The notes: a model not told the origin generated them from the sequence alone. A stretch of 64,000 bases of DNA from Diplonema japonicum (GCA_964019335.1 OZ025735.1:310001-374000), one strand, 5' to 3'. Counted from the stretch's first letter, positions 4,002 through 63,242 are shown. A program made the numbers and translations.

Positions 4002-4005
<4 letters not shown>

Positions 4006-5008
4006 TATCTGCTGGAGATGTAGGTTGCTCAATTTTTATGATAGTAGTGATAGGCCCTGTAGCGGTCAGTATGCTGCCATGGTATCAGTTCACAGGCGAC
4101 ACAACACTGGGCATCGACCTGGGAACTACATACAGCGTTGCGTCGATATGCAGCAGTAAAAAGGCCCGTTCTGTGATAATCGACGAGGGAACCCCTCTCG
4201 TCCCGAGTATGGTCTCCTACTCCGAAGGGAAAATCGAAGTCGGTGTCCCTGCGGAAAAAATACAACTCGAAGACCCACAACACGTGGTGACGGTTGCAAA
4301 GAGGTTCATGGGAAAGACAATGGACGACACAATGATAAAAAAAGAGCTGAAAAACCTCCCCTTCAACATAGTTGAAGGGGAAAACGGGTTTGCTGCTGCG
4401 GAAATCGACGGCCGCCGCGTCGCGCCCGAAGAAGTCGGTGGTAGAATCCTCAAAAAGCTAAAAGACAAAGCCGAACGGGAAGTTGGGTACTGGAAACATC
4501 TCTTCGGTTTCCGATTCTACACCGCGACCATCTCAGTACCCGTATCTTTCAACGGGCAGCAAAAAGCTGCCACACACCGAGCCGCGAAAGAAGCTGGGTT
4601 TTCCATGGTCAGGCTTATTGAAGAACCCGTAGCAGCTGCAGTAGCATATGATTTAAAAACTGACGATGAACTGGATGTGCTTGTCTATGATATGGGTGGC
4701 GGCACACTCGACGTTGCACTGCTACGTCTCCAGCGCGACACAAACACATTTATTCTTGTATCCACTGCCGGTGAGCCCAACCTTGGAGGGTCCGACTTCG
4801 ACCGTTGTTTGATAGACTTTACTGCGTCGTCGATGAGTAAAAGTTTGAGCGATCTCACCGCACCGCAGAGAGCGCATTTGACAAAGGCTGTTGAGCTTGC
4901 CAAGCGAGAGCTTGCTTCAGTTGAATCAGCCGTTGTTTCCACACCGTGGGGCGAGGCTACCATTACTAGAGAGGATCTTAAAACGGTTTGATTAATTTAT
5001 CTACAAAG

Positions 5009-5043
<35 letters not shown>

Positions 5044-5327
5044 AGGCGTGTAGTGAGCTTGTCGAACGGGCTTTGAAGCCGGTTGACGAAGTTGCCGGGC
5101 TTGTTGCCGAAGAGGATGATCTTCAGGTTTTTTGTTTTATTTAAAAAATTCCAATTCAAAAAAAATTTTTTTTAAAAAAAAAAAAGGTCGTTCTTGCCGG
5201 AGGTAGTTCCCGTCTTCACGCGGTGAGGGAGTTGCTTATCGAGAGGTTTGGGGAGTCAAAGGTTCACTCTGACCTTGATGCGGACATGGCCATTTCGTTG
5301 GGGGCGTCGAAGGCTTACGGTTGCTGA
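4002..5327 (+). CDS. Hsp70-family protein with N-terminal hydrophobic segment and ATPase domain only (HSPA13/STCH-like), 401 aa
   Basis: Exons 4002-4985, 5046-5126, 5187-5327 (two 60-nt GT-AG introns). GIDLGTTYS, EPVAAA, YDMGGGTLD, LGGSDFD; spliced exon 3 gives VVLAGGSSR...DADMAISLGA then stop, so no substrate-binding domain. Confidence 0.85.
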
Positions 5328-5591
5328 TGGGGAGGAGGAGAAAGAGATGGAAGAAAAAGAAGAAAAAAAAGAGAGACTTTTCGTTTTCAAAAAAAAAGAG
5401 GAAAAAAAAAAAAAAAAGAAGAAGATTATCCATTCCGATCCGGACGAATCTGCAAACAACCCCTTTCCCGACGTATACCGTGCAGACTGGAAGAAAAAGA
5501 AAAATATTCAATATTTTTTAATTCGAAAAAAAAAAAGGAAGGAAAAAAAAAAAAGAGGAGCGAGGGGGGGGGAAAGGGGCAAAATAAGAAC

Positions 5592-6092
5592 ATGAACACG
5601 AACACCGGTTCCCCTATGCAATATCTAGAGTACTATGTGTTGGACGACAAGAATCTAGTTACGTGCACGCAGCTGGCTGCAGTGTACAAGATAAGCCTCG
5701 AGGAAGCCAGAGGGCTGGCATGGCAGTTCCATCAAGCAAACAAGGCAGTCACAACCCTTTACGCATCCGTGGTAGTTCCCGGAACTGGAACCACGCCATT
5801 CAGAATCGAAATCAAACCCACAATGTTCACTTCAGAAAACCCTTCTACTCTCTATGCCGTGGGCAACACCGCTTGCGTTTCAACTCCCTCGCTTCCAGGG
5901 GACCACTACCCTCCCCAGTCTGTCCCGAGTGTCACACTGCCTCCATCTTTCATTCCTGCCTTGTTGTCGAAGAAGCGAAAAAGAAGGCCTGATATTGCGT
6001 TGGGCGACCCGGGTCTGGGGAAAAAACAACACCCTGAGGAAGCTGAGGTGATGGAACTATCCGACAGCGAGGATATTATCGTCATTGATTGA
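5592..6092 (+). CDS. DNA polymerase delta subunit 3 (Cdc27/Pol32)-like N-terminal winged-helix protein, 166 aa
   Basis: YLEYYVLDDKNLVTCTQLAAVYKISLEEARGLAWQF...TTLY resembles the POLD3 N-terminus (V.D..KIVTYK.LS..L.V..N.AK.ML..F); KKRKRR NLS-like. Confidence 0.6.
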   Translation: MNTNTGSPMQYLEYYVLDDKNLVTCTQLAAVYKISLEEARGLAWQFHQANKAVTTLYASVVVPGTGTTPFRIEIKPTMFTSENPSTLYAVGNTACVSTPSLPGDHYPPQSVPSVTLPPSFIPALLSKKRKRRPDIALGDPGLGKKQHPEEAEVMELSDSEDIIVID

Positions 6093-6432
6093 TTTAGATT
6101 CAGAAAAAGAAGAAGGGGAGACCCAAGTCCAAGGTGGGGGGGGGGGGGGGGGGGGACGATACCTCCCTGAACACGTGACGGGCCACCAGAGACAAGGCCA
6201 TGCGAGGTATTGACTGGCCTCGGGCCATTGAGCTTCCCAACAGCAGTCGTGTTGTTGCCTCTAGCCCCCCTGTAGATTGCAACGCAGCTGGGTCGAGGTG
6301 GCTGTGCTGGGCACCACCAACACTGGCCACCTTTATCTCTTATTTTATTATTTTTTTTTCTCGCGTTGCATTAAAAGAAAACAAGTGAAAAAAAAGGGGG
6401 GGAGAGGAGGGCTAAAAAAAAAAAAAAAAAAA

Positions 6433-7041
6433 ATGGACACAAAGTGCCCGATTTGCGGGCAGGAGTTTTCGGAGACCACGCTGCCAAAGAAGCTCGGCTG
6501 CGGGCACAGTTTTTGTTTGAAATGTTGCGAAGGGAAGGTGAAGGGCGGGTCGAGGTACCTGACCTGTTTTTCATGTGGGCTGGACTGCGACGTGAGCGGC
6601 GCACAGGGGGTGGCAGGACTGCCGACAAATACTTCTCTTCTACCAATGCGGCCCGACGGTGCTGCGGACCCCACTATAGATATCAACAACGCACTGCGGC
6701 AGGTCCTGTCCCCCACACACACTGTCGATGCTTACCGAATGGCACTGACCATCCACCAACATCTACAACTTCACATACAGCGACCGGCCGTGTCCTCGGA
6801 GGAGTACCTAACGTGGCTCCTCATGTTACTCTCCACCTTCCTCAACACCAAGGTTGCCTTGTCCCCCGAGGCGTCTGAGGCACTCTCCAACGACCTCATC
6901 ACCCTGCAGCAACACCCATCTTCCCTTGTTTACGGGCTGTGCCACAATCTGTTAGAGGTCTTCTGGCCCAACGACACCGAGGACACCACCACACTTGTCC
7001 CAACGGACCCCAAAGGGAGACCTCTGAAACAGGTCGCGTGA
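6433..7041 (+). CDS. RING finger (C3HC4) protein
   Basis: ATG at 6433 after an A-run; CPIC-x11-CGHSFC..C-x13-CFSC followed by LPTN.SL, typical of TRIM-type RINGs. Confidence 0.85.
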   Translation: MDTKCPICGQEFSETTLPKKLGCGHSFCLKCCEGKVKGGSRYLTCFSCGLDCDVSGAQGVAGLPTNTSLLPMRPDGAADPTIDINNALRQVLSPTHTVDAYRMALTIHQHLQLHIQRPAVSSEEYLTWLLMLLSTFLNTKVALSPEASEALSNDLITLQQHPSSLVYGLCHNLLEVFWPNDTEDTTTLVPTDPKGRPLKQVA

Positions 7042-7173
7042 TACAAAAAAAAGAAATCATTATTTTTTTTTCCCCCCTTTCCTTCCACTTTTTTTTATTT
7101 TACACAACTCAAAAGGGGGGGTGGGAGGGTGGTAGAAGAAAAAAAAAAAAAAAAAAGAAGGGAGCAAAATAAT

Positions 7174-8205
7174 ATGAAAGACATGCTCCCCCCATTCTTT
7201 AGGTTTGCAGTGGATGTAAGGTGTTTCGATGATTTTGTAGAAGAAGACGTGGTGAGGGGGATGCAGGTGGCTGGTTGTGAGCTAGTCCTCATGGACACGT
7301 TGAAGGTGAAGGAAGGAGGCGGTGTTATAGGTGTCAGGTGCGAGGTGTCAGGCTCGCGAGAGGAATACTGCGTTAACCTCGTTTTGGGGTGGAATGGCCT
7401 GCGCGGAAAGCACAGCGTGAAGGAGGTATGGTGTACATGCCCACATAAGACCTACTGCAAGCACGCTGCCGCGTTGCTGCTGATTCTGACGTCTGACTGG
7501 TCGGGGCCGAAACCGATTGCACGGTGGGCCCCAACACCACGGCCAACCCTGCCAAAGGAGCCCCCAAAGGAATCGCTTGTAAACCTAGACAGCCTTGAAA
7601 ACAACGACAATTTGGAAACCGACGTAAAAAAACTTTTTTTCTCGCATGCACCACTGCACGTGCCGGACCCTTTACCGGACATGAAGGATGGTGTTATATC
7701 ACCTAGAAAATCCGGGAACTCTTCGCCATGGAGGGGGCGGAACGAATCTTCGACATCGCCTCGAAGAAGCCCTGTGGTGCAGAAGAAGAAAATAACTGTT
7801 ACACCTAACGTCAAAAAGCGAATATTGATGGATACGCCCGCGAGGTCGGACTCGGAGGATGCGTCCGACGACGGAGAGACCTTGTTTTTCACAAACCGGG
7901 AAACAAAGCGGCAAAAAAAACGAAAGACCGCACAGCGTGCCGCTGCCTCTGCTCCTTCTCCCTACCGCCCTCTGTTCGATCTTGCTGATGCGCCTTTGGA
8001 TGCAGACCTATCTGCGTGTCTAGGGAGCTCCAAAGGGTCGAAAAGAGTTGTGTCTTCTGCTTCAAAACCGTCTCCTGAGTATAAACCCAAGGTCCGGTCA
8101 TCCACTGCGTTATCCCTGTCTGATGTAACGCCCATCCCTTCTGCTCCTCATGAACGGTTCGCGAAGGAGGTCGTCTGTTTTACCGATATGCTTGGGTCAC
8201 TCTAA
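7174..8205 (+). CDS. SWIM zinc-finger protein with long disordered C-terminus
   Basis: VSGS.EEY.V.L ... WCTCPHKTYCKHAAALLL = SWIM CxC..CxH motif. Confidence 0.8.
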   Translation: MKDMLPPFFRFAVDVRCFDDFVEEDVVRGMQVAGCELVLMDTLKVKEGGGVIGVRCEVSGSREEYCVNLVLGWNGLRGKHSVKEVWCTCPHKTYCKHAAALLLILTSDWSGPKPIARWAPTPRPTLPKEPPKESLVNLDSLENNDNLETDVKKLFFSHAPLHVPDPLPDMKDGVISPRKSGNSSPWRGRNESSTSPRRSPVVQKKKITVTPNVKKRILMDTPARSDSEDASDDGETLFFTNRETKRQKKRKTAQRAAASAPSPYRPLFDLADAPLDADLSACLGSSKGSKRVVSSASKPSPEYKPKVRSSTALSLSDVTPIPSAPHERFAKEVVCFTDMLGSL

Positions 8206-13309: not shown

Positions 13310-14396
13310 ATGCGAAGTATACGAACGGTCCAGCAGCTGAGGAGGTACTGCAGCAAGGAGATAGCAAAGACGCGAGATGACAAAAAGGAACTCGCCACTC
13401 CGACCAGACCTACCGATGCGCTGTATGAAGCTGAGTCAAAAAACTCGGGAAACTTTAATATCGCTGTCCAAGCCGTGCGGGAGAAGCAACGAAAACGAAA
13501 CGAGCTCTTTGAAAACCCAGAGTTCAGGGAGAACCAGCTCGGATACCTCCCCGACCAGTACACGCTGCTGCGCGGCCACGACAAGGACGGCAACTACGAA
13601 AGAAACTTTATACTGCGCAACCCAAAGGTCCTCCCTGGCTTCCTCATGTTCGCCAGCGTTGTATTCGGCGGGGCAACAGTGTACTTTGGGTACTGGAACG
13701 AATCCAAAAAATACAAAAAAGATTTTCAAGCTCGGGAAGAAGGCGTTGCATATGTGGGAACACCACGCCTGGGTGGACCATTCGAGCTCATCGATTCAAA
13801 AACCGGGAAAAAAGTTACATCGGAATCCTTAAAAGGCAAATGGTTGTACATATACTTCGGGTTCACGAACTGCCCGGACATCTGCCCGGAGGAAATGAAG
13901 AAACTTTCTTTTGTAACAGACAGTTTGGAACCAATCCTGGGTGATATGTTTCAGCCTGTATTTATTACTGTAGACCCAAAACGTGATGGTAAAGAAGCAG
14001 TTACAGAATATCTACAAGACTATCATCCCTCCATCCTTGGCCTCACAGGTTCCACTGCCGCAGTTGAAAACGCGACGCGGCAGTACCGTGTGTTCCACTC
14101 CGTGCCCGACATCGAGACATTTACCGAGTCGGATTACCTTGTTGATCACTCCATCATCACGTACTTAATGGACCCTCGTGGGGTATTTTGCGACTACACG
14201 ACCAAGGAATACAGCACTAGGGAGGCGTTCAACAAAATCAAAGCGTCCATCTACGCCTGGGAGAAGGAGCAGATTGCCAAGGGCATGACTGACGTTACCA
14301 TCACCTCGAAGTATGGGAAAAAAAAAATTTTTTTTTTTTTTTATAAACACAACGAACAGTCCCGCGTTGCAGGCGTTACGGGTTTCTGGATCGTAA
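13310..14396 (+). CDS. SCO1: SCO1/SenC cytochrome c oxidase copper chaperone
   Basis: Mitochondrial-presequence-like start, one TM helix, LGGPFEL, YFGFTNCPDICP, ITVDPKRD, YLVDHS. Exons 13310-14310 and 14360-14396 (49-nt intron). Confidence 0.93.
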
Positions 14397-14650: not shown

Positions 14651-17600
14651 ATGTTTAATATATTCACCAACTCCCAGGCCTTCGATCGGGCACAGGACCA
14701 TGCCCAGATACTCAGTGAAGCTGCGGCTGCTGAGGAAGTTCACATGGCGGACAGGAAGAAGAAGCACACGGCTAAAGACAGAAAGTCTACAAAGGAGGAC
14801 AAAGTGGAGGTGACACAAACAGAGATCACGGTGTCGATGAGGAGGCGTTGGCTTTTGGAGGCGCAGGAAAACCTTAACACGTGCATACTAACTGAGAGGT
14901 CAAGGAGGGTGAACTCAGAGACGCGTGAAGGGCAAGACCGGGCGTGGATGACTCATTGGCGCAACTCTGTGATCAAGAGACAGAGGGAAAAAGAAGCGGC
15001 AAAGGTTGGCAGGGGTATTGTGAGCCATTCTGCTACGCGCCGCCTGACGCGCGAACTAAAGATCATCGCGAGCGATCCCAGCTGGGGTGTCTCCGCCATG
15101 CCTGTCGACGACAACCTGCTGCAGTGGCACTGCAACGTTGCTGCTCCTGGCGGTTTAACTGGGAAGGGTGTCCTCCACCTGGAGCTGAACTTCCCCCCCA
15201 CGTACCCAGCCGTGCCTCCTAAGGTCAAGATCCTCGGCGCTGATGTTGAGCACCCTAACATTTTCGGGAAGTACATCTGCCTCGACATGCTTGAAAAGGG
15301 CGAGTTCGCCACTGCTGAACACACACTTAAACCCTACTCCGGTTGGTCTGCTGGCTACGGCGTACAAGCCATGCTCCGTCAGCTGCAGTCCTTCTTCTAC
15401 AGTGGCGCCGACTCCGGCGACACCAAAGGCAGGATTCGCATCAAACCCTGGTCAGCCAACACCACGTGGGAGTACCAGCTTGACTGGGATGAATGCAACG
15501 AATGGCAGGACTGGGCATACGACCCATTCTCCTTCTGTGGGCACAGGTGGGCCTCTCCTGGTAACTGTCACGTAAAAGGCTGCACCTCGAAGGGCAGGCT
15601 GACCAGGAAGTGGATCAAGATGCACGACGCTGACGTCTCGAGACTCGAGATGCTGCACAAAGAACACGAGGATGACGAGGACAACCGAGAGTACTGGCCT
15701 GTAGAGAACATGGTGTTCGCAAGGAAGGTCAAACCTAAGAAGTTGTTCTTCTTGAAAATCATGTTCGCTGCCAATCTGGTGCCCGACCTGGGTGCCTACT
15801 ACAAGTCTCTGGAGTACAAGTCGATCCCCACCTACCACTGGAATCCTTTCGTCGAGGTTTCCTTCGGTGGACAGACTGAGACAACGGCTATCTCCCCCGT
15901 GCACCTTGCTATCAAAGACAATCCTGATGCCCCCAGCTACCTACCGAAGCGTGCCTGTTCCAGCACCCCTGTGTGGATGACCGAGTTCAAGTTTGTTCCC
16001 AAGTCTTACAACCACACGGAGATGGTGAAGTTCAGTGTGATCGATGATTCGCCCACTGGGAGGATCGTGCTTGGCGTCGCTGAGTATGCTATTGGTCAAA
16101 TCCTGAAGAGCATGAGGGGAAGCAACATCGAACTGAAGCTGAAACCCCAGGAGGACAATGAAAGGTTCCGCAGGAGCTCCAAGCAAAACCTCGGGTCCTT
16201 GTTCTTTGGATACCACGTTCCTGAAGTAAAGAAGGTGCCTACGTACGAGTTCCAGTTGAGACCAGAGTGTATCGATGGTGACTACCGCCAGCGCTCTGGC
16301 TGCACGGGAAGCATCAGGAGAGTCAGGAGGAGGAAGGGATACGTGTGTGAGGCCTGCGACCACTCGCCTCTGGAGTGTAAGCCTCCACTGCCGTCAGCCA
16401 TAGAGTGCGATGACGCACCGCCCTTTGCCTTAGAGGCCTTCCACGCCAGCATGAAGGAAGCTGCTGGTGATAACCCCGCTGCACTGAAGGCTATGGGGCG
16501 AATGATGGCTTCGCTGGAGAATGAAGAGCCCGTCCACACGGGTAGCACAATCACCGATCTGCCCTTCGATGTGATGTTGGTTGTGATGGAGTTCCTGCCA
16601 CGGAACCGGGAACGCAGGTACATGGCTGCTCTGTACACTCCTTGGGACGTGCTCTACAAGAACGCCAAATTCTGGGAAGCACAACACCTCCGTTGCTTCA
16701 CGACGGGAGCTAATCCCTCTGAGGACCTCCTAGGTATAGGTGTCACCGCTGCCGAGGCCATGCACGGACGCCCTGTGTTCACCTGCCAGTTCGATGCCAT
16801 GAGCCACACTGCCTACGCAGAGGGCGTGCGTATTGGTGTGTGGAAGGAGCCCCTGACGCACTGGATCCCTCTCTACATCAACAAGCACCACGCCACTAAG
16901 TCCATGCAGAAGCTCATACCCATGATGGACAAGCTCGCGGTGGGAGTGAGATCCAGCACCTCTGCCTGGACGGTTTGCGGGGCCGACATCGATGGGAAAG
17001 GGAAGAACAGTCTGCGGAAAGTGAAAGAGTTGCCTGGCCACGTGTTCAGGTCGACGGGCTGGTCGGGGCTGAGGGGCGGCTCATTCTGCGCATCCGGCAA
17101 CCACTATTTCCAAGTGAGGATCGACTCATTTCAAGAGATCTCGGGGTTCAAAATCGCAGGGAGGCTCGCTGCGCACGGCGTGGTAAAAGTCGGCTGGGTG
17201 ACCATGAACGGGGATGTGAACCTTGGGACCGACAAATACGGCTTCTGCATTTCGTCAAACGGGCACAAGGTGCACGACACAGTCCGCGATGAGTACACCG
17301 AGCCCCTCAGCCCAGGGGACATCGTGGGGACGCTCTGGAACGCTGACAAGAGAACCATTTCATACTACATAAACGGGAAGTTCACTGGTGTTGCCTTTAA
17401 CGTGCCCAGGAGCGGGGACTACCCTGGGCTCATCCCCGCAGTGGCGCTGAGCTATGCCACCATCGAGGTGGACATCGAGGGCGGGTACAACGCACCGTGC
17501 GAGGTGGAAACAAGCACGCTTGGTGCTCATGAAAGAGTGGTGGCACGCAATGTCGGTAACTGTTTGACGGTCTTGCCGCAGCTGATGAACCACATGGTGG

Positions 17601-18576
17601 TGGATGTGATGAAGGGCTCGCTGCACGCGTCGGTTAAGGCACTGCAAGGGTACTGCGCGATTCACAGACTGCTTCTACACTGCTGCGACACAATGCCATC
17701 TGTACAAGAAGAGGCGGACAAACAGATTAGAAAGTTTATCGAACACCCAACGGAGCGCCACAAGGTGATGTGCCCAGACCTCGGTATCCTGCTGTGCCTG
17801 CTCACTATCAGCAAACAGTACTGGTGGGAGGACATGAGAAACTGCTTCCTGACGGAGCTCTTCGCGAGGCACGTCAGGTGGTCTCTAAAGAAAAGCAAGC
17901 GTTTTGCAGCCGGCATCCTGATCCCGAAGATGGCGAAGGAAGCAGAGATGGTGGAGGAGGCATTCTTCGCGAATGAGACAAGTTGCAAGCTAGTCATGTT
18001 CCAGGTGTTCTTCTGCAGCCTCGTGAAGCCGCCTAAGGACGAACGAGAGTGCCACGACGACCTCTTCGGCAGAGTGAAGACCGACTATGACTCCAGAATG
18101 GGCTTCCCTACAGAGTTCATGGTTGAGAGCCTTGTGCAGCAGATAAAAACAGTGAACAGTGCTCTGGAGAAGCAGTGGAACGGGTTCCTGACGACAGTAG
18201 GCGGGCAGCCCCGTGAGGTGCGCGACCTTGCTAAGCGAGTTAGGGAGGCGGTGACTAGGTCGAATTACAGCGGTTATCATGGTATGAACGGAGAAGGGGA
18301 AAGGAAAAAAAAAAAAAAAACAGCTGATGTAACGTTCCCTGACAAGCCCTATGCTGCTAAGTTGCTACGAATGCCTCCGAGACCCCGTTTGAAGCCGGGT
18401 GAGAAACCAAAACCGAAGCCTGCTAAGAGGAGGGAAAAGCTTGACGAGGACGACTATGGTGGACAGGTGCTTTTTTTTTTTTTTTTTTTTTTTTTTTTCT
18501 TTTTTTTTTTTTTTTAAATTCTTTTTTTTGGTTGCATTACAATAAACAGGACGATGGCTACGACAAATATGATTGA
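14651..18576 (+). CDS. Large ubiquitin-conjugating (UBC/E2) domain protein with split WWE, C2, F-box-like and SPRY domains, 1266 aa
   Basis: UBC: RRLTREL...LLQWHCN...FPPTYP..PP...HPNIF...ICLDML. C2 at ~15740-16215; F-box-like ITDLPFDVMLVVMEFL; SPRY (HYFQV, VKVGW, LGTDKYGF, GDIVG, YYING, LIPAV). Exons 14651-18281, 18324-18466, 18550-18576. Confidence 0.85.
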
Positions 18577-36946: not shown

Positions 36947-36992
<46 letters not shown>

Positions 36993-39400: not shown

Positions 39401-40044
39401 ATGAGCAAATGGGGCAATTCTGAAAGAGAGCACTGGACAGACATGGTGGTCACTTCGGTATGGACTCCCCCCCCCACTTTTTTTTCATTCCAAAAATTGT
39501 CAAATCACAGATAGCTGCCATGTACACCAAGAACGCTGCAGGGGTGTTTACTACCTCCGCAGGTATCTTGTTGAAGCTCACAGATAACATACTGGACAAC
39601 CCCACGGAAGAGAAGTACAGAGAGGTATTTTTTTTTTTTTTTTCCCCTCCTTTTCGACACCGCGCACAGATACGGCTAAGGAACAACACGATCAAGGAGA
39701 AACTACTAAAATGTGAACCAGTCCTCCAAGCCCTCGAGGGAATGGGGTGGAACAGGCGAGTTGTTGAAATGGAAGAAAAAATGTTTTGGGACAGGCCTGC
39801 TAAAGACCTCGAGCGTCTCCGTTTGGGCAAAACAGAAGTGGTCAAATACCTGACATTAATTAAGGAACGGTCCGAGGCAGACCCGAAGGAGAAAGAACGA
39901 AAGGAGAGGGAAGAGGTCATGAAAAAGGTAGAACACGATAAGGTTGCACGTGCTGAATCGCGAAAGGGACAGAACACCCCCAGTGGCAGGGTATCTACGT
40001 CGTCGGCCGCCGCAATCACATCTAAGCCCCATTCTACTATGTAA
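39401..40044 (+). CDS. PUB (p97-binding) domain protein
   Basis: LLKLTDNILDNPTEEKYREIRLRN..IKEKL...L..MGW after removing introns 39458-39510 and 39625-39669. The 3' end could include a further exon. Confidence 0.8.
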
Positions 40045-49800: not shown

Positions 49801-52800
49801 ACGAGCTGCAACCAGGTGCCTCTGACAGCTACCCTGTGTACTTTGAGCCAAAGCAGAGCGGGAACTTCGAAACAAAGATCACCATGTCACTGAAGGACAA
49901 CTCATTTGAGGACACGACCATCACGCTGCTTGGGGAGGCCTTTGAAGAGGAGGTCGTATTCGAGGGCTTGGACGAGGGGTGCGACAACTTCATGACGCTC
50001 GCGGACTGCGGTGTAAACGCCCCGACGCAGAAGACGTTCACTCTAGAAAGCCACTGCAAAGATGTGCTGAGGTACCAGTGGGTGCGCGAAGGAAATCCTG
50101 GGGAGGATAAGTTCACCGTGTTGCCATCGGCAGGACACATCATGCCGGGCAAGACAAAAGAGATCACCGTAAGCTTCCTCAGCTCCGAACCCGAAGACCT
50201 TCAGAAGGTGAAACTCACGATGAAGACATGGAAGGTTTCACTTGCAAAACAAACAGCAACCGTATGGGATTCGAGCCTGACTTCAGTAAGATGGGAACAG
50301 GACATCACACCCCCCAGCACTCCCAAGGAGGTGCTTGAGGAGGAGAAAATACCAGAAAAGGTTCAGGAGAAGGGAAAACCAGGCAAGGGGAAGAAAGATG
50401 CCGGTAAGGCAACACCGGAACCGGAAGAAGTCAGGGAGCCAACTCCCGAGTCTATTCTGTCAGCTGAGCAGACCTCGCTGCTTCAAAAGGAGAAGGAGCT
50501 TGAGAGGAAGCGAAGACCTTTGAAGAAGGTGACCGAGCCCACCGCGGAACCTGCCTTTACCTACATTGACGATGAAAAGACGCCGAAGGTGAAAAACCTG
50601 TTCATCAAAGCGGTGTGCGACTACGCCACGTGGGAGCTGCAAGCTGATGCTGAGGGCCACTCGCTGATAGAGACAGGTGTGCGCTTCGCTACCACGAAAC
50701 TGTTCCAGACCAGGACGATCCCCATCGTGTTGAAGAACACCGGGAAGATCTCTTTGGAATGCATCTGGAAGATGCTCAACAAGAGCGGCGAGATCGTGAA
50801 CACGGAGGAGTCGAGCACCTTCGCCATCGAACCCGACTACTGCAAGATCCCTCCTGGGAGCAGCTCCTCTTTCAGGCTGGCATACGCCCCGCTCGACACC
50901 GACCCCCATTCGGCGATCCTGCGGGGGTGCATTCCTAACGTGAAGAATGAAGGGGACAAGCAGGCACCACAGCCGAAGATTGCACTGAGCGGAGTGGCTG
51001 AGTGTCCATTGGTGCACTTCGACCTAACCGAGAGCGACTACCTAATAGCAGGGAGGAGGAACCCTGAGCTTAGCACTCCGCATGCAAGGTTTATCGACAA
51101 GACTGCAAAGGTTATTGAGTTTGCCTGCTCTGGTGTTAAAGTGCGGACCACGAGGCGATTCTTCATCCTAAACCCTACCAACATGTCGTATGAGTACGAG
51201 TGGACGGATGTCCCTGATGGGAGCAAGCAATTCATCTGCCAGACGCCTAAAGGCGTCGTGCACAGCGGGAAGAAAGCCGAGATGGTGTTTGAGTTCACCG
51301 CCGACAAGCTGGACTTGAAAGAGGCCTTCTGGGACCTACGCATTGGCGGCAGGGCAGGCGAGAACTTCTTCAAACCCATCACCGTGCCCTTCTTGATGGT
51401 TGGCAGGACGACTGAACCAAACATCCTCCTCAGCCCTACAAGGGTCAACTACAACCAGGTCCTATTGGGGGCGAAGTCCAAAAAGACCTTGCAGCTCTCC
51501 AACAGCGAACCCATTCCGTTCGCCTTTAACTTCGTAGTGGGGAGAGGTGTTGTGTCTGTCAGCCCCATGAGCGGTTCCATCCCTGCACATTCCTCTTTAC
51601 CCGTCGAGGTATGCTTCTCACCGTCGTCGGAGGAGGCGTACAATTGCAACATCGTGTGCAACGTGAAGAAGAAGACGAACCCACTGACATGCAACATCAA
51701 GGGTGAAGGCTACTCCATCCATGAGTCGCTCGTCATCAAGAACAGTGACGGTTCTACACAGCTGCTCACCGCGGGTGCTGTGAATACGGTTGATTTTGGC
51801 AGAGTGCACATTAACTCTAACGTCAACAGGCAGCTCATCATCTCGAACTCCGGAAAGCTCCACTTCGACTACAAGTGGTCCCGCCCGCCTTCTTCCGCCG
51901 TCAACTTGTCCAATGAGATCGACACGGTGGCACGGAACGGGAAGTCGGTGTGCGAACTCACCTTCAACCCCACAAGAGTGTGCAACATCGAGAACTACCG
52001 CATGGTCTGCAAGATCACGAACGGTGCATCGTACACCTTGCAGATGCAGGGTACAGGCGTGCAGCCCAACGTGCATTTCAGCGTCACAAAGATTGACTTC
52101 GCGGCGCAATTCATCCACATCCCCGGGAAGCATGCTCAGCCCAAGAAACACGTTCTGCAGATCACGAATCAGGACAAAACAGACATCTCGTATGAATGCA
52201 ACACGGAGCCGCCGGCCTGGCTTGAAGTGGACGCCACGCCTAGTGTTCTAGCGAAGAACGGTTCGAAAGAGGGTGGTGTGTACACCGACAGACGTGAGGT
52301 CGTCTTCACGTTCAAGCCCCTTGAAGCAGGCAAGGTCGATGCTGTGATCCCCTTCGAGATCAACGGCATGTTCACAGTCAACGTGCACGTCTTCGGCGAG
52401 GGTACCATCCCCAAGGTGGAGCTTGCCGCTGGCCAACCCAACACCATCAGCTTCGGTTCCGTGCGTGCGGGCGACGTGAAGCTCATCCCTGTCAAGGTGC
52501 AATGCAAGTCGAAGATACCAACGCCCTTCAGCTTCAAGGACTGCTTCCCCCCAGAGCTCGACAAGAACCTCATCACCATCTCTCCCTCTGACATGATCAT
52601 CTTGAAACCGAGGGAGATACGTACCGTGGAGTTCCGGTTCAAACCCCCGCTTGGGATGCGCCTTGCGCCCTTCAACTACAACATAGAAGCCGAGGTATAG
52701 AACTAAGATTTAAAAAAGAGAAAAAGAAATGATTTTAACAAATATACAGATTGCAAGTCAGAAACGACACTTCCTTACGCTGATGGGCAGCAGCATAGGA

Positions 52801-54868
52801 ATGGAGGTGCACTTGGACCAGAAAACACTGTCTTTTGGAACTGTGGTTCAAGGCACGAAGCAGTCGAGGAAAGCGCTTATCATGAACACAGGCGATGTGC
52901 CTGTTACGTACCAGTGGCCAGAACTTGACGGGAGCGGGTACAGCGTGTCGCAAAACACGGGGTTCATGCTGCCCCACTCAGAGCAGTCGTGTGAGATTAC
53001 GTTCGCACCATCGGCCCCCATGCCGGAGTCGCACAGGGAGCTCAGCTTGAAGATAATCGACGCGACGGTGACACCGAACCTTGTGAAGGTGATACCCATC
53101 TCGCTGGTGGGAGTGTGCAGCAAGCGGCCTGCTGTGGCGGAGGAGCAGACCTTCAAGTGCCCAGTGAGGGACACCACAAAGAACATCATCAAGATAACAA
53201 ACAACACAGCGGAAGAATGGGTTCTGTCGCCTGCATTAGACACGAAGAGCTGGGTGGTACCTGAGAAGGTGACTGTCTTGGCGAATTCCTCTCACGACAT
53301 GGAGGTGATGTACGCACCACTGGTGATGACAAAGACGAGCCAGAAGGGCGACAAGGAGTACGACAAGGGAACGCTGTTCCTGCCGATCCCCACAGGGGAC
53401 CCGAAGCAAATGATGCACAGTTTGATAGGCGAGGCAGCACCTCCCAGCGCAGAGGATGAAATTGAAGAGAGCGTGACAGCCAAGACATCGCACACCTTGC
53501 TTCTCTTGGTACGAAACTGGCTTCCGACATCACAGCGATTCACCGTAGTCAGGGATTTCATGATCATCCCACCGAGCGGATCGCCCATTCCCATCGACTG
53601 CTCCATCAATGTCAATGGAGCGAACACCATCGACGTGCCTCCGCACTCACAGCGTAACTACAAGCTGGCGTTGATATCCTACAAGGAGTGTAAGATCAAG
53701 GGCACCGTCAGGTTTGTCAGCGATGCGACCAAGGAGTACCTTTACTTCAACGTCTCGTTCAACATAAAAGCACCGAAGGACCTCAGAACCATCAGCATCA
53801 AGACGCCTGCTAGACAGGTCATGACGGAAGATATCTACATAGAGAATCCTCTTGACAAGCTGGTCGTTCTTGAGGTTTCAAGTACCGGTGCACCAGGGGA
53901 GCTCACGCACCCTGACAAGCTCAGCGTGGAGCCACGGTCTGCAGGGAGGCTTGGGCTGGAGTACCTTCCGTTGGTTCCTGGGCAGGAAAAACAGGCCAAG
54001 TTGTTGTTGAAGTATGACCAACAAAAACAAAAAAAAAAAAACAAAAAAAAAAAAAATAGATCCCCAGACTTAGGGGAGTTCCCTTACACGTTGAACCTCA
54101 CACCGCTGCCGTCTGTGCCTGAGAAAAGCTTGAGGTTCACAGCTCCTTTGGGGCAAGCACAGCAGCTTACTGTTAGGTTGCGAAGCTTGGCAAAGTATGA
54201 GAATTTTCTTTTTTTAAAAAAAATCCCCCTCAGGACGCCTTGCGATTTTACGTGTAAATTTGCTGATCCTAAATCTCCATTCACGAAATCTCAGCCTGTT
54301 ATGGTGGTGAAGGCCGCAGCATCTACGAAGCCAGACGGGGAAGAGTTTTCTTTCGATGTGACATTCGAGCCGTGCAAATTCGGAGAAGCGCGGGATGTTC
54401 TGGAGGTTTCTTCTCCTGTAGGCGGGACCTACTTCCTCACTCTCCTAGGGAACTGTGCCATGCCGCAGAGGCAAGGGCCTTATGAGTGCAGGAGTGGGCA
54501 GGCCAAGGTCATCCCGTTCAAGAACGTCTTCCCAGACACCGCAGTTTTCGCCTTCGCCACAGATCTACCCTCCTTTACGCTGTCCAAAGCCTCTGAGAGC
54601 ATTCCTTCTAAGAAAGATGTCGGTGTTCAGGTCACCTACAAAGCCAGCCCGGACGACCCCCCCGTTGCCAAGGCGAAGGTATCTCAGAAAAAAAAGTTTT
54701 AAAAGAAAAATATCATTTCAGCTTACCGTTACTTGCCAAACAGAAGCTTCTGGTGCCCCTATCAGTTGGGTTTATTACCTTAGGTATGTTCGGGTTAAAA
54801 GAATGGGGAGGGCGAGAAAAAACGATTTTTTTTTCTTTTTTTTCTTCTACAGTGGTGTTGGTGCATGA
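40872..54868 (+). CDS. HYDIN: Hydin, axonemal central-pair protein, ~4580 aa
   Basis: Many ASH/PapD-like repeats (lDFG.V...l.l.N.g) and a central adenylate-kinase-like P-loop GAPLSGKTT. Exons 40872-52694, 52750-54011, 54060-54194, 54234-54678, 54722-54783, 54853-54868. Confidence 0.93.
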
Positions 54869-55196: not shown

Positions 55197-56346
55197 ATGG
55201 CAACCAAGAAACCATTGAACGTGCAGAGCGCGAAAGTAAAGCTAAACGAGCTGTTTATACACTGGCTGACACTACCAGAGGCTCAGGATCTGGTTGGAAA
55301 GCTAGACAAAATAGGAGTAGAAGGTGGCGAAATACTATTAGACCTAGATGGAACGGGCGGCAATGGATTAGGCACAAGCCCGGTTATTGCATTAGAAAGG
55401 GTCGGGTTGGGTGAGAGCGTGGGACATGGCAATCTGAGTTTTACATCACCACCTAGGAGTCCAAGAGCAAGCCCGAGTCATAACTCGGTGAGACATTCAA
55501 ATTCACTTGCCTCGCCATTGGTGGACGAGCTTGATGCTGCTCATAGGCAAGGTGCCATGAGCCCCCATGGGTCACCACGTGCCACACGGCTGGCAAGCCC
55601 TGAAAATCTTGCAGTGGCACCAACGTCCCCTTTGCGCGGGCCGAAGATCAATTTAGGCTCACCCGCGCAATCTTTGACTGTTGCGGAGTCGCCTTTCGCG
55701 TCGGCATCACTGAACTCTTCCACCTCATCCCTTCCTAGCGATGCGCATGGCAACCCTGCTAGGTTGGCAACCGCCTTTGCTCAAATGCAAGACCAGCAAA
55801 ATCTTCCTCCGTTGAACCTACCACCATCTGGAAAGACGACGTCCCCATCGCTACAGCCGCTTGAACACCCTGCCATCAAAAAGAAGCTGACAGGTGAGCC
55901 CCGAGTACAGATCCCAACATTCTACTTCCCGAAAGGAAAACCGCAGCCAGCCGACGAGTCCGACAAGGAGATCCAACTGTTGCGGAAAATGTTTGAATCT
56001 AAGAAAGTGGCCTCGAAGACAAACCCAAGGCCGCGGAGGGATAAGGCAACGGCCAAGTATGACAAGCTGCTCAAGGTGAAGGATTTCGCGGACATCACGA
56101 AAAAAGTCTGCCAGCTGCCGCGGTGGATGAACGATCTCCTGTTCAAAAGGGTGATGTGCTACGACCCCGGGCTGGCGAATTACAACAAGGAAAAGGAGCG
56201 GGAGTGCGCGATCCACCCTGCCAACAGTACGGTGACCTACCAAAAGTTCATGGAATTCTACGAGAGGGAGATGGCAGGGAAATCAAGGGAACGGAGGCTG
56301 TTCGACGCCATCAAATGGGATAAGAAACGCGACATAATCGAGGTAC

Positions 56347-56381
<35 letters not shown>

Positions 56382-57307
56382 AACAGAAATCCGATCTTCG
56401 ACCGTTGGTTGAGGAAGTTCTTCTCGTCCACCCGGGGCTGGAGTTTTTAAAGTCCACCCCCGACTTTCAAGAACGGTACGCGGACACGGTACAGGTTCGA
56501 ATAATTTTCAGCAGCACCAATTCGGAAGATTCCACCATTTCATGGGCGGACTTCCTGTCAAGCTCCCTGCACGACGTCCTCCACATTCTTGACGAGGAAA
56601 CAGATATCAATGTTAGCCAAAAAACCGAATTCTTCAGCTACGAGCACTTCTACGTGCTGTACTGCAAATTCTGGGAGCTGGACACGGACCACGATTTCTA
56701 CATATCGAGGGACGACCTTGCGAAGTACGGGCTCTACTCCCTCACAAATAACATTGTAGACAGAGTGTTCAGCGGCAAGGGCCGACCGTTGAGGTCAGAT
56801 ATTGTCGGTCTCATGAATTATGAAGATTTCGTTTGGTTTTGCTTATGTGAAGAGGACAAGACAACGAGCAGATCTCTCGATTATTGGTTCCGATGCACCG
56901 ATCTAGACGACGACGGTGTGATTTCTGGATACGAAATCGGGCATTTCTTCCAAGAGCAAAAGCAGCGGATGGAGTCCAGCTACCAAGAGACAATTGCTTA
57001 CGACGATATTCTCTGTCAGATGATGGACATGATAGCCCCTGCCAGAAGAGACGGATTGCGGCGTTCTGACATCAAGTCATGCAGGCTGTCGGGGAACTTC
57101 TTTAACGCTCTCTTCAACCTAACCAAGTTCATTGCGTTTGAGCAGAGGGATCCCTTCATGGCGCATGCTGAGAAACAGCTTCCTGAGAAAACGTATGGGA
57201 AGGGGTGAGGAGGGGAAAAAAAAAAAAAAAAAAAAAAAAAAGTGATTGGGACCGATTTGCCAAGATAGAGTATGACAGAATGTCACATGAAGCCGGTGAA
57301 CAGGTTT

Positions 57308-57353
<46 letters not shown>

Positions 57354-57400
57354 AGGAAGATGTGTCTGAGGATTTCGGGATGAGTTATAACGGGGGGTAG
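55197..57400 (+). CDS. PPP2R3: PP2A regulatory subunit B'' (EF-hand)
   Basis: KLNELF..WL, IPTFYFP.GKP, HPGLEFL..TP.FQ.RY, FSYEHFYV.YCKFWELDTDHD, EEDK. Exons 55197-56342, 56387-57192, 57243-57303, 57356-57400. Confidence 0.93.
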
Positions 57401-58451: not shown

Positions 58452-60431
58452 ATGACCTTCCAAAAAGAAGGATCACTCGTGGCATGGCTGGAAGATATAG
58501 TAAGAACCACGGCGGGGCCGTATGGCAAGGCAGCGGCGATAGAGTCAAGCATTGTGAGTTTAACAAAAGTAAGCGGAGAAGCAATGCGACAGATTGTCGA
58601 ATGGCTGAAGGTACCCAACGTTGGGGAGAACACAATCGCAAGGAGGCTGGTAAACAGCCAGCACCCGTTCACAAAACTGTGGGCTCAAACCGTGAAAGGC
58701 ACAAGAGATGCAGGGTGGCTTCTCCTGTGGGTCTCGCTTTACATCATAAAATGGGGCGGCCGCATGGAAAAAAATACTCTTCTTTGGACACCACCCATCA
58801 TCGACCTATCCTCCACACTGTGCAAAGAGTGGTGCAAAAAATTTCTATTTTCACCTGAGAACACAGTTAAAATCAACGTGCAGAACGTAAAACAGCTTCT
58901 GTCAATAGCAATGAACACAGTGTCTCCAAACACAATTCTAGACATGTCAAAGCAAAGCATTGCCGTCTTTTCCTCAAAAATCGTTCGGGGTTTTCTCGCC
59001 GCTCTTAACGAGCAAACCAACACCCTCGACCCTTGTTGCATCCGATGCCTCAAGGTCAAAAACCAAAACCCCGACCTCTCCTGCTCCGAGGTACTGGACG
59101 GTGTTCTAATCGACTGGCCTCTTCCCGCGGAGTTCCTAATGTACGCACCAGGGGGGAAGATCATCGATCAAAACGGAAAGGTTGCATTATACGACCTGTG
59201 CTTAGAACCCGACGTGGGTGAAACCCCGGGCGCGGAGGTGAAAATTCAAAGCGTGTCGCAAAAGGATGCGTTTCGGAACCTCAAGAAGCTTCTTGTAGCG
59301 ATGAGAGGCAATGGTGTCACGGTGCTGGCTTCGCAGAAAACAATACACCGGTCTGCTAGAATCTGGCTGTGCAAACATGGGATCTTACCGTTGGAAAGAC
59401 TGTCGAATCGTCACATCGACGCGGTTCGGCTGGCGACGGGAGCAGCGTTGATCACAAGCGGCAGTGTCGCAGCATTGCAGCAAAGCACCATGGGGAGGGT
59501 CACATCCATAACGGAGACAACGTTGAACGGGAAGAAGTTCATCAAGATCACGGGGCCCAGCCAACATGTTTCCACCGTTGTGTTGAAACACCCGCACACC
59601 AATGTTCTAGAGGAAGCGGAGCGTATTGTCACACGAGCGATATCATCCCTCGTGGGGTACATGCGCAGTTCTGTTGCGTCTCCTGGTGCCGGGGTCACCG
59701 AACTCCTCCTCGCCAGACATTTGGAAATCCGTTCAAAGTACATTGAACACGCAACGAGCGGCGTTGTGGCGAAGCTTTCCAAACCCATGAGAGAGACCGT
59801 GCAGGCCGTTGCAAAAACGCTTTCAAACGGGCTTCGTGAATGGGTCTCGATCGTCACATGCGTTGCCTCGAAAGATCTTCGCGACATCGAGCTTCGCAAT
59901 GCGATTGACAAACAAGATGAAATAGACAACATAGCCTCTGATATGGGAATTGACCCTTTCATCGCAAAACGGTTTAATATAAACCCGTTGAAGCTTGGGA
60001 AGCAACGAACAGTCAGCCGGGAAAACGGGCAAACCATGAGGGAGGTTTCCGCGACTCTGTTGAGCAGAAGTGACCGCACGACGCACATGGTGACGGGCGT
60101 TACACGGTTGCATGGATGCCGACCTCCGCCCGGTTCTGTGTTCCGTTGCCTCACCACTGTTGTTCCCGGAGCTGAACGGGGTGCTGCTGTTCGACACGAA
60201 GCAGCTCCCTCTTTGTGCAAAACGTACGTTTCGCACCGTTCTGAATGTCCGGAAACGATGACGGACGTCTGCAGCAGAGGGGATGGGGGCGAGCTTCTTC
60301 CAGGCGATCTCAGCGACGGGATGTTCCCTGTCTTCGACAGTACTGACGCGAAGTACCAAGCCATCTGCAGCGGTTTGGACATCAGCGTCATGCTGCTTCG
60401 CACGAACGACATTGTAATCGATACGACTTAA
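58452..60431 (+). CDS. MKKS: Divergent group II chaperonin-like protein, MKKS/BBS6-like
   Basis: RTTAGPYG, HPFTKL, VLASQKTIH....WL..HGI..LERL......V..ATGA, PGAG.TE..LA.HL, D...AK..AI..G. The GDGTT motif is degenerate, as in BBS chaperonin-like proteins. Confidence 0.7.
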   Translation: MTFQKEGSLVAWLEDIVRTTAGPYGKAAAIESSIVSLTKVSGEAMRQIVEWLKVPNVGENTIARRLVNSQHPFTKLWAQTVKGTRDAGWLLLWVSLYIIKWGGRMEKNTLLWTPPIIDLSSTLCKEWCKKFLFSPENTVKINVQNVKQLLSIAMNTVSPNTILDMSKQSIAVFSSKIVRGFLAALNEQTNTLDPCCIRCLKVKNQNPDLSCSEVLDGVLIDWPLPAEFLMYAPGGKIIDQNGKVALYDLCLEPDVGETPGAEVKIQSVSQKDAFRNLKKLLVAMRGNGVTVLASQKTIHRSARIWLCKHGILPLERLSNRHIDAVRLATGAALITSGSVAALQQSTMGRVTSITETTLNGKKFIKITGPSQHVSTVVLKHPHTNVLEEAERIVTRAISSLVGYMRSSVASPGAGVTELLLARHLEIRSKYIEHATSGVVAKLSKPMRETVQAVAKTLSNGLREWVSIVTCVASKDLRDIELRNAIDKQDEIDNIASDMGIDPFIAKRFNINPLKLGKQRTVSRENGQTMREVSATLLSRSDRTTHMVTGVTRLHGCRPPPGSVFRCLTTVVPGAERGAAVRHEAAPSLCKTYVSHRSECPETMTDVCSRGDGGELLPGDLSDGMFPVFDSTDAKYQAICSGLDISVMLLRTNDIVIDTT

Positions 60432-60501
60432 GAGCGAGGGGGTGTTGGGCTCTTTTTTTTCTTCTCTTCTTGCTGAACCTTCCCTCGCTAGGAAAACAAA
60501 T

Positions 60502-61512
60502 ATGGAGGCTCACACAGCGTTAACAGAGTTTCTCATAAACGGGAAAACACACTTTGTATACCAGAAGCTCGACCGGGAAAAAGTGGAGATCCTTCTCATC
60601 AACGACGACCTGAGCTGCTACAGAGGGGTTGCGGCGGTGGCCACCATAAAACCAGAAGGGTTTAGAAAGGGCGCTTACATCGAGATTTTGAAGAACGCTT
60701 TGAAGGTGCAGGACAGCTCGGGGGAGAGCTTCAGCTACGAGATCAAAGAAGGCAAGCGCGACACGCTCAAGTTCAGCGTGCTGTTCAAGGTCCAGGACGG
60801 GCACATCTTCGTCAAGGGCGCAGAGTTCATCCTAAAACTCGTCACGGATAAATCAGCAGCGATAACAGAATTTTTGAGAAAACTCGCCATATTATCAGGT
60901 GGGGCCTCGGCAGCCATGTCGGAGGTCAAAACGTTGAAGCACGACAGGGAGCGGTTCAGAGCGCTGACAGACGAAGCCGCGCAACAGCGGTTAAAAAGCG
61001 AAGAATCGATGTTGACAGGAATGGTGTGGGTGCTGAATGAGAAGAAAAGCAAGCTGAAGGAATTCGCCGACGATATCGAAGCCGTTGAGCGGGACAAGAA
61101 GCTGTTAGAATCGATTGTGGAAAACAAAGACAAAAAGATGGAGAAAATGGAGGCAGAGGTATCACAGCTCAAAGCCGAGCTCAGCAAGACGAGAATAAAG
61201 CTTAACGTAGCGCTGATGGCGGATCCTGTGAGCGTGAACAAAACCGCAGCCGGTACCAAACGAACGTACGATGAGTCGGCAGACTCATATCCAGACTTCA
61301 CCACCATCGCAGCCGTTGCATCGCCTGATGTGAAAAAACAGCTTTTTGCGTCCCCAGTCCGGCAGGTGGGCAGGCAGACTTCTGACGTGTCCCGGACCTC
61401 CGTCGGCTCCCGCGTGCACTCCACCAAGAAGCCCCGTCGGTCTGATGGTTCGAATGACGAGACCCGCAACGACGGCCTTATTACAGTACACGATTTGCTG
61501 GATTCTGATTGA
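60502..61512 (+). CDS. XRCC4: XRCC4-like NHEJ factor
   Basis: Beta-rich head, then a coiled coil with MVWVLNEKKSKLKE (cf. the XRCC4 ligase-IV-binding F..VLNEKK.KI), then a disordered tail. Confidence 0.75.
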   Translation: MEAHTALTEFLINGKTHFVYQKLDREKVEILLINDDLSCYRGVAAVATIKPEGFRKGAYIEILKNALKVQDSSGESFSYEIKEGKRDTLKFSVLFKVQDGHIFVKGAEFILKLVTDKSAAITEFLRKLAILSGGASAAMSEVKTLKHDRERFRALTDEAAQQRLKSEESMLTGMVWVLNEKKSKLKEFADDIEAVERDKKLLESIVENKDKKMEKMEAEVSQLKAELSKTRIKLNVALMADPVSVNKTAAGTKRTYDESADSYPDFTTIAAVASPDVKKQLFASPVRQVGRQTSDVSRTSVGSRVHSTKKPRRSDGSNDETRNDGLITVHDLLDSD

Positions 61513-61750
61513 AAAAAAAAAAAAAAGAAAAAAGGCTTTATCCCCCCTCTTTCATGCACATTACACACTTCCCCTCTCGGTTAGACTTTTTTTTTTTTTT
61601 ATTGAATACCCAATCTCTTCGTTTTATCTTAAGGAGAAAGGGGAAAACAAAACCAAGAAAAAAAAAAAAAAAGCCGGAGGGAGTGTAGTCTTTCCCCTCC
61701 TCCCTCTTTCTTCATCGCCAGAAAGAAAATATAATACAGGAGGGAAGGGG

Positions 61751-61778
<28 letters not shown>

Positions 61779-61782
<4 letters not shown>

Positions 61783-63242
61783 AAGTACATAAACCGCGAA
61801 CCGGTCGGGGCTACTCGAGTAAGAAAAACAACAAAAAACCGTCAGTATGCTTGTTGTTCATAATGCCGAATGAGGTGGTGACCGCGTGTGTGGAGTTTCT
61901 CTCGGATAAAGAAGTGCTTGGGGTCGAACTGGCGTGCAAGAAAATGAAACAATTCGTGGAGGTCTACCGCATATGGGAAACAATGTTCAAACAGAAGAAA
62001 TGGCGCGCCCCTGTATCACCGCCGGACAGCTGGAAGCAGTACTACCACACCGTCATGAAACAGAGGGAAGTCGCGATAAAGGAGAAGATCAACAACGTCT
62101 CCTGCACGCTGTGCTGGAGGGTCGACTTCCCAATCGCAAAAGAACCGTTCAAAAAACGATCCAGAGAATTCGAATTCTCACATGACGCTCTGGGAAGCCC
62201 TATAAAATGGCAGATTGAATCTGAATTGAAACAAACAGTCTCTTACGAACAAGCTGCAATACGGATCTGGACGACAAACAGCTGGACACCCGAAACTACA
62301 GATCACTATTACGGGTCGCATTGCACTGTGTCCGTTCGAGACTGCCACGACAAGGAGGACCTGCTTCAGGAAACGACGATTGACATCGACAACAGCAAAG
62401 ACTTACGGTTCGACGCCGTTCTTCTACCGGAAAACCGGGAGCTTCTGTTGAAGGTGAACCTCACCCTTGCCCTTGAAGTCGCTGTTCCATTGGAACCCTT
62501 CTACACACTAATATCACATGAACCCTCCGACTCCGTTCGTATCGGCTACTGCAGAGCAATATTCGAAATCGCAAGATGCAAACGAAAGCACGGAAGTACG
62601 TTTATCCAACAGTGCGACAGCAACGTGGGTATCCTAGTCAATCTGGCAGCTAGCAACGATACATCAAATAAATTGAAGGTTTGGAAGAAGAAAAAAAAAA
62701 AAAAAAAAAAATTGTAGGCTGAGGTTTTCCAAGCGTTGTTCAACTTATTGTCGCCTTCGAGTGTGTTCATTCCCGATGAGCTGGCGGGGGGGTTGATGAA
62801 CACGTGTATTGATGTTATAACAGAGGCAGCGCTTCCTGCTGTTGAGGAGCGTGAGGCGTTGCATTTAAGCGTGGTGCTGGCGCAGAATGCGTTGGGGAGT
62901 GCGTTTAACCTTTTGGTGCACCCTGTGTCGAAAAAGCTCCTCACCGCTCCCGTTCTCCGCCAAATGGAGAAGCTTCTCTCCTGTCCCGCGTACAAACTTT
63001 GTAACTTTAGCGTTATCACGGTGGTCCTTACTGCCGTGCACTGGGGTACCCTGCCTGCTTCGCACGCTGACGATGTCGTGGCTCATTACATGGCAGCGAA
63101 CAACCCCCTCGATCCTGACTGCACGGGGGTGGCTTGGGACGAGTCTGATATTGCAGCGTACTTCCTTCCCTTGCTGCGGTCCAAAAACCTGACTTGCGTT
63201 GTATTTGCCACGTGGTGCATTACGGCATTTTATCATGATTGA
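61779..63242 (+). CDS. F-box protein with beta-sandwich (MATH-like) and helical-repeat regions
   Basis: LLFIMPNEVVTACVEFLSDKEVLGVELACKKM...IW...W..YY F-box. Exons 61779-62678 and 62718-63242 (39-nt intron). Confidence 0.72.

Follow-up and report, generated by a model that had tools for sequence, protein, structure and literature searches.

The stretch of the Diplonema japonicum genome analyzed here (GCA_964019335.1 OZ025735.1:310001-374000; 64,000 nucleotides (nt), hereafter the window) carries an array of co-oriented genes, with 22 of 22 modelled genes on the + strand. Gene arrays of P. papillatum are described as likewise co-oriented, and essentially all mRNAs of that species as bearing a spliced leader (SL) (PMC10161547). 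The source species was supported by ProRS exon 2, which matched the EukProt D. japonicum protein at 99% (82% for D. ambulator and 64-69% for other diplonemids), and by Hydin (100%). The original prediction had correctly presupposed a euglenozoan with co-oriented genes. Models were rebuilt for 12 intron-bearing genes (29 introns) and 10 single-exon genes; one copy of the duplicated ProRS gene was left out of the counts, which thus use 26 distinct positions in 11 genes. Seven of the 10 single-exon open reading frames (ORFs) were identical to EukProt proteins in every residue between the first Met and the stop, and no match was found in EukProt for the other three. The introns of this array are short spliceosomal introns of the ordinary type, and their density drops steeply with distance upstream of the stop codon.

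All 29 introns had GT-AG ends, and once they were removed the frame stayed open until a stop was reached in the last exon. Their lengths ranged from 34 to 194 nt (median 49), the donor was GTATG in 13 and the acceptor CAG in 20 of the 26 positions, and 16 were in phase 0. The canonical introns published for D. japonicum, where roughly 10,000 introns have RNA support, show the same GT-AG ends, GTATG donor, CAG acceptor and A-rich tract, with a median length of 41 nt as compared to 49 nt here (PMC12621601).

Twenty of the 26 positions fell in the last fifth of the coding sequence (CDS) and two in the first fifth (binomial p=6.8e-10 for the former). Drawing one position per gene gave p=1.4e-4, the mean position exceeded 0.5 in 10 of 11 genes (p=0.006), and removal of Hydin and the AMP-binding gene left 11 of 17 positions in the last fifth (p=7.6e-5). 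Intron density was 3.8 per kb over the 100 nt closest to the CDS end, then 1.9, 0.6, 0.8 and finally 0.25 (1-2 kb), and the 16.8 kb of coding sequence lying more than 2 kb from a stop contained none. Fifteen introns were found within 500 nt of a stop versus one within 500 nt of a start (p=3e-4, PUB gene excluded). Neither the classical 5' excess of intron-poor eukaryotes nor enrichment at both gene ends, the landscape of internal loss, was found in the window; enrichment at the 3' end was found in it and in Hydin of two other genomes (see below). The inverse bias advanced in the original prediction was therefore borne out by the 29 rebuilt introns and by statistics far from chance. Its long first exons (3,631 nt in UBC, 4,238 nt in the AMP-binding gene and 11,823 nt in Hydin) and tiny last coding exons (16-48 nt in 7 of 11 genes) were found as described, its largest intron-to-stop distance of ~1.9 kb was measured at 1,920 nt, and its intron positions agreed within about 1 point, except in the mucin-like gene (97%, not 95%). 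Two of its gene labels, "F-box" and "mucin", had no Pfam match.

Splicing was supported by same-species transcripts at nine of the 26 positions (five in Hydin, three in ProRS, and ERGIC3 intron 1) and by gap-free alignment to orthologues at four more (three in PP2A B'' and UBC intron 1). Hydin, with its five introns spliced and the first Met removed, was identical to the transcript-derived EukProt protein P0122, which establishes its 11,823-nt first exon; a Hydin isoform (P0178, EukProt) with a 57-residue duplication at 50290-50480 represents an allele or an assembly artefact. ProRS copy 2 differed from P0121 by three substitutions over 711 aa, without gaps. PP2A B'' showed no gaps against transcript-derived orthologues at its three junctions or at its N-terminus. 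For UBC intron 1, the three orthologues, of unstated source, have intact C-termini and carry no genomic information; three full-length orthologues align to the UBC-SPRY first exon (residues ~9-1200 or 527-1195). Contigs from runs X1-X3, which broke at homopolymers, were compared over 25000-44900, gaps in their cover being given no weight. ERGIC3 intron 1 was absent from one X2 contig, a few percent divergent and of guessed RNA status, whose alignment stopped at 38918 with 50 letters remaining, and parts of the AMP-binding first exon were covered without gaps by contigs whose RNA status is equally a guess. As far as they were read, neither of the shorter EukProt isoforms P0304 and P0307 stops at a GT-AG junction; both were discounted as probable artefacts of assembly.

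The bias could be a local or ascertainment effect, the window being atypical or introns in 5' regions and untranslated regions (UTRs) having been missed. The data come from a single window with 11 intron-bearing genes and unobserved UTRs, and 13 of the 26 positions, without transcript or orthologue support, were placed by frame and motif only, the weakest being those of SCO1, the mucin-like gene and UBC intron 2, all in variable tails. These points speak against taking the bias as general. On the other hand, the gene-level test given above is far from chance, exact matches in EukProt confirmed where Hydin, ProRS and 7 of 10 single-exon genes start, and two other genomes have first exons of about 13 kb (see below). 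In addition, GTAYG donors were not enriched in the spacers (four on the + strand versus seven on the - strand, none near a downstream ATG). A scan of all genes for hidden in-frame introns, by AT-rich and homopolymer content, found no island in long exons except one in Hydin at 48387, which was ruled out since P0122 includes it as coding sequence. We therefore consider an artefact of this kind very unlikely.

In Poisson fits (SWIM gene left out; next ATG as a proxy for the start of the next gene), an exponential anchored at the stop codon gave an Akaike information criterion (AIC) of 402.6, with 2.7 introns per kb at the stop and a decay length of 574 nt, versus 406.0 for relative position, 413.9 for a next-ATG anchor, 424.5 for both ends and 439.1 for a uniform density. 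No misfit to the exponential decay was detected in the intron distances (Kolmogorov-Smirnov p=0.45). The stop codon is thus a better landmark than the start of the next gene (ΔAIC 11) or both ends (ΔAIC 22), and symmetric protection of both gene ends was rejected on AIC. Proximity to the trans-splice or polyadenylation site of the next gene, to which the bias had initially been linked, was disfavoured by the same proxy; genes with long spacers carry more, not fewer, introns, which also counts against next-gene anchoring. Adding spacer length to the stop anchor lowered the AIC to 397.6, with a positive slope. The median downstream spacer was 132 nt behind intronless genes (range 70-662 nt, n=9) and 723 nt behind intron-bearing ones (range 254-1223 nt, n=11; p=0.008, post hoc), in a test that excludes SWIM and ProRS copy 2 and in which the last spacer is at least 758 nt; upstream spacers gave p=0.29.

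Comparison of the Hydin and ProRS positions with those of relatives, suggested as a check together with the original prediction, showed that 3' introns are common to other Diplonemidae genomes. Four ENA proteins (P0003, P0007, P0123 and P0126) were taken as single-ORF calls on genomic DNA because low-complexity sequence in them begins at precisely the D. japonicum junctions. In Hydin P0126, the sister of Flectonema, 38 residues are inserted at intron 2 and the protein ends at intron 3. Hydin P0123, placed by a quick tree as sister to Lacrimia, stops at intron 2; it also contains four inserts of 6-12 residues, the longest near minimal intron size, which we read as coding. Both proteins start at the normal N-terminus and lack Hydin intron 1, and their first exons therefore measure about 13 kb. 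ProRS P0007, the sister of Rhynchopus euleeides, extends from intron 1 to intron 2, while P0003 starts at intron 1 and has a tail that corresponds to a shifted-frame reading of exons 3 and 4 (compatible residues, 13 of 13 and 8 of 8, against maxima of 11 and 6 in 50 shuffles). Accordingly, Hydin intron 2 occurs in both other genomes and intron 3 in the one able to show it, the sole Hydin intron missing elsewhere being intron 1, the farthest from the stop. For ProRS, three of three positions are found in one genome and two of two visible ones in another. Since the 3' positions are common across genera, the 3' introns are older than the divergence of several genera, and the inverse bias is, judging from the sequences of the two comparable genes, common to other Diplonemidae. 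These four proteins are also a warning for annotation, as simple gene calls miss tiny last exons that encode conserved C-termini.

The explanation that we prefer for the gradient, with a probability of roughly 45%, is mRNA-templated loss of introns sparing the 3' end. Loss anchored at the 5' side had been one of several options offered earlier; we infer it here, together with all the steps of its mechanism. Copying of spliced RNA would be primed internally, by a DNA break or via fold-back of the transcript, and would extend toward the 5' end of the RNA, removing 5' and internal introns in the Diplonemidae lineage. The risk to an intron would consequently rise with the length of coding sequence downstream of it, giving an exponential. 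Copying primed at the poly(A) tail would enter the coding region mainly if the 3' UTR is short, leaving short-UTR genes intronless, and the last introns would be protected where the 3' UTR is long and rich in homopolymers. Self-primed internal reverse transcription with sparing of terminal introns has been described for Cryptococcus (PMC2395259), and in human cells intron deletions produced by RNA-templated repair pile up upstream of breaks (PMC12065846). Exact intron loss of the reverse-transcription type is reported in kinetoplastids, and more than 2000 proteins with reverse transcriptase domains in P. papillatum (PMC11613528), whose 3' UTRs are long (median about 800 nt; PMC10161547). A more far-reaching version would have Diplonemidae purging their introns through RNA-templated copying that is primed internally and directed to the 5' side, with long homopolymer-rich 3' UTRs blocking the tail-primed route, so that the present genes would represent an incomplete form of the purge after which the sister kinetoplastids have almost no introns, with the polarity of loss reversed family-wide; as a whole, we judge this version unlikely.

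Several results weigh against loss as the origin of the gradient. No lost intron was seen, and no position could be traced as ancestral beyond Diplonemidae. In a metagenome scan with the PP2A B'' alignment, 567 stretches were confirmed, and the best 80 of them proved to be transcripts or genes poor in introns, unfit to date introns; two algal-type PP2A B'' introns lay a few codons from intron 2, at different sites, and seven fungal-like ProRS read-through ends lay about 8-10 codons upstream of intron 2. Intron sharing between P. papillatum and Naegleria is reported in just 7 of 107 conserved genes (PMC11613528), and the published comparison gives no positions in common with Hemistasiidae, both of which fit much gain. 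For Hydin intron 1, a single gain in Diplonema is more parsimonious in the quick tree than two losses. Moreover, spacers are only proxies for 3' UTRs, and the spacer test was a post hoc one on small numbers. Finally, seven of the 26 introns lie <=50 nt from the CDS end, ~2x the number expected from the exponential (p=0.02), a hint of selection linked to the stop codon.

Gain biased to the 3' end would start from an intron-poor ancestor, with poly(A)-primed cDNA of reverse-spliced RNA reaching only the 3' part of genes. The few positions common to outgroups and the possible gain of Hydin intron 1 are in line with this, the exponential decay is compatible with it, and 3'-biased gain has been proposed before, although later work assigns reverse transcription to loss only (both in the review PMC3488318). 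However, under such gain the gradient should be anchored at the end of the transcript and genes whose 3' UTRs are short should have more introns, and the window shows the opposite; by eye, the introns of one gene do not look like copies of those of another. We regard it as quite improbable. Intronisation of 3' UTRs as a general source was rejected, since several 3' introns split conserved sequence.

Selection, on the other hand, would keep introns near the stop if they were tolerated or useful only there. Splicing failure or capture of the acceptor by the SL could be cheap at that place, a terminal junction could let decay surveillance act over the whole frame, or a last intron could serve in 3'-end definition where the next trans-splice site is distant. 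The stop codon being the better landmark, the excess within 50 nt of it, the shortness of the last coding exons and the long spacers behind intron-bearing genes all agree with selection, and isoforms joining the SL to exon 2 are documented in trypanosomatids (PMC11613528); by analogy, competition of acceptors with the SL would be plausible. Nevertheless, strong conservation is seen in some last exons (ProRS W.MFGRSY; PP2A DWDRF), so splicing failure is unlikely to be cheap there, ProRS holds a conserved 5' intron, and a smooth 0.5-kb decay with clusters of four to five introns is not obviously expected from selection alone. We consider it a rather unlikely cause of the gradient.

Enrichment of introns at the 3' end is also known in the heterotrich ciliate Fabrea salina, where it arose via loss of 5' introns (PMC13685798). 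That lineage is unrelated and has 15-nt introns (PMC9004412), as compared to 34-194 nt in Diplonema. Unlike those of Fabrea, the Diplonema genes are co-oriented and presumably SL trans-spliced, and their gradient, which correlates with the length of the spacer, follows the absolute distance to the stop; 5' loss has been reconstructed for Fabrea and is only inferred for Diplonema. Cryptococcus (PMC2395259), Entodinium caudatum and Paramecium bursaria (PMC12862383) keep 3'-terminal introns, and mRNA-mediated loss has been invoked for them as it is here, but they also retain a 5' peak, whereas near starts the Diplonema window has one intron against 15 near stops. Classical poly(A)-primed loss by reverse transcription (PMC3488318) shares the mRNA template and a length-dependent gradient with the loss proposed here, but it leaves a 5' excess, a polarity opposite to that in Diplonema. 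No distribution along genes is given in the main-text parts examined of PMC12621601, and no statement on intron position along diplonemid genes was found in open-licence literature or in two diplonemid papers, supplements aside. As far as searched, the 3' bias is thus new for diplonemids and a variant of a rare known pattern. The case for tail-primed loss by reverse transcription is built mainly on the 5' excess of intron-poor eukaryotes, and a family-wide reversal beside the nearly intronless kinetoplastids would open loss polarity, priming mode and interference between cis- and trans-splicing to testing, for which diplonemids offer several genomes, transcriptomes and one transfectable species.

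Table 1. Introns, long first exons and single-exon genes of the window. Positions of introns are percentages of the CDS; "common" refers to the genomes behind the ENA proteins.
Gene	Feature	Coordinates	Strand	Position	Remarks
Hsp70-family (4002-5327)	intron 1	4986..5045	+	82%	222 nt before CDS end; frame and motif; Pfam HSP70
Hsp70-family	intron 2	5127..5186	+	88%	frame and motif
SCO1 (13310-14396)	intron	14311..14359	+	96%	frame and motif only; acceptor picked among alternatives
UBC-SPRY	first exon, 3,631 nt	14651..18281	+		open frame
UBC-SPRY	intron 1	18282..18323	+	96%	no gaps vs P0310-P0312
UBC-SPRY	intron 2	18467..18549	+	99%	frame and motif only
ProRS copy 1 (19545-21795)	intron 1	19840..19882	+	14%	5' exception; junction as in EukProt P0001/P0121
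ProRS copy 1	intron 2	21544..21610	+	93%	
ProRS copy 1	intron 3	21727..21767	+	99%	
ProRS copy 2 (22519-24827)	intron 1	22814..22878	+	14%	common to P0007, likely P0003
ProRS copy 2	intron 2	24576..24642	+	93%	common to P0003 and P0007
ProRS copy 2	intron 3	24759..24799	+	99%	common to P0003
AMP-binding (adenylation) enzyme	first exon, 4,238 nt	25839..30076	+		open frame; Pfam AMP-binding
AMP-binding enzyme	intron 1	30077..30113	+	84%	frame and motif
AMP-binding enzyme	intron 2	30194..30227	+	86%	frame and motif
AMP-binding enzyme	intron 3	30344..30390	+	88%	frame and motif
AMP-binding enzyme	intron 4	30778..30826	+	96%	frame and motif
Thr/Pro-rich membrane protein, mucin-like (33197-34908)	intron	34811..34860	+	97%	frame and motif only
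ERGIC3 (37654-39021)	intron 1, 194 nt	38407..38600	+	67%	skipped in run X2 contig 14
ERGIC3	intron 2	38919..38976	+	96%	frame and motif
PUB-domain (39401-40044)	intron 1	39458..39510	+	10%	CDS of 546 nt; 489 nt before CDS end; frame and motif
PUB-domain	intron 2	39625..39669	+	31%	frame and motif
Hydin	first exon, 11,823 nt	40872..52694	+		unbroken; identical to transcript-derived P0122
Hydin	intron 1	52695..52749	+	86%	absent from P0123 and P0126
Hydin	intron 2	54012..54059	+	95%	common to P0123 and P0126
Hydin	intron 3	54195..54233	+	96%	common to P0126
Hydin	intron 4	54679..54721	+	99%	
Hydin	intron 5	54784..54852	+	99.9%	last coding exon 16 nt
PP2A B'' (55197-57400)	intron 1	56343..56386	+	56%	no gaps vs transcript-derived orthologues
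PP2A B''	intron 2	57193..57242	+	95%	no gaps vs transcript-derived orthologues
PP2A B''	intron 3	57304..57355	+	98%	no gaps vs transcript-derived orthologues
labelled "F-box" (61779-63242)	intron	62679..62717	+	63%	frame and motif
five genes (starts 751, 1792, 5592, 6433, 7174)	single-exon	751..8205	+		5/5 exact EukProt matches
three genes (31643; 36132 YEATS; 37023)	single-exon	31643..37526	+		exact EukProt match for YEATS only
two genes (chaperonin-like 58452; XRCC4-like 60502)	single-exon	58452..61512	+		spacers 70 and 266 nt

The two copies of the tandem ProRS pair (19500-24827) are 88.5% alike in exon 1, 40% in intron 1 and 98% in introns 2 and 3, a pattern that suggests DNA-level conversion of their 3' part. 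An in-frame Met upstream of copy 1, not present in copy 2, would add 15 Arg-rich residues; this extension is possibly a targeting sequence selected through alternative trans-splicing. Long A runs directly adjoin the ATG of many genes, and AG-free runs before the ATG reach up to 42 nt in Hsp70 and more than 120 nt in PP2A B''. At 57681-57725, 281 nt past the PP2A B'' stop, a GTATG, a T-run and an AG follow one another, a possible 3' UTR intron that is not above chance. The spacer past the AMP-binding gene (31050-31530) is covered by X1-X3 contigs with 3-nt indels and has no long + frame; it is probably 3' UTR. A 124-codon ORF at 25351-25725, with no Pfam match and with an X2 contig over it, is a possible small gene and was not counted.

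As for the remaining single-exon genes, the chaperonin-like one (58452) was not found in EukProt and the XRCC4-like one is an exact EukProt match. The spacers downstream of the five genes at the start of the window measure 96-662 nt, except ahead of transposon debris. This decayed debris occupies 8300-13200, between the SWIM and SCO1 genes, and includes a DDE_Tnp_1_7 fragment (8662-8940). The first of the five (751-1695) has a Pfam TAGT domain (TET-associated glycosyltransferase), and we take it to be a candidate base-J glucosyltransferase.

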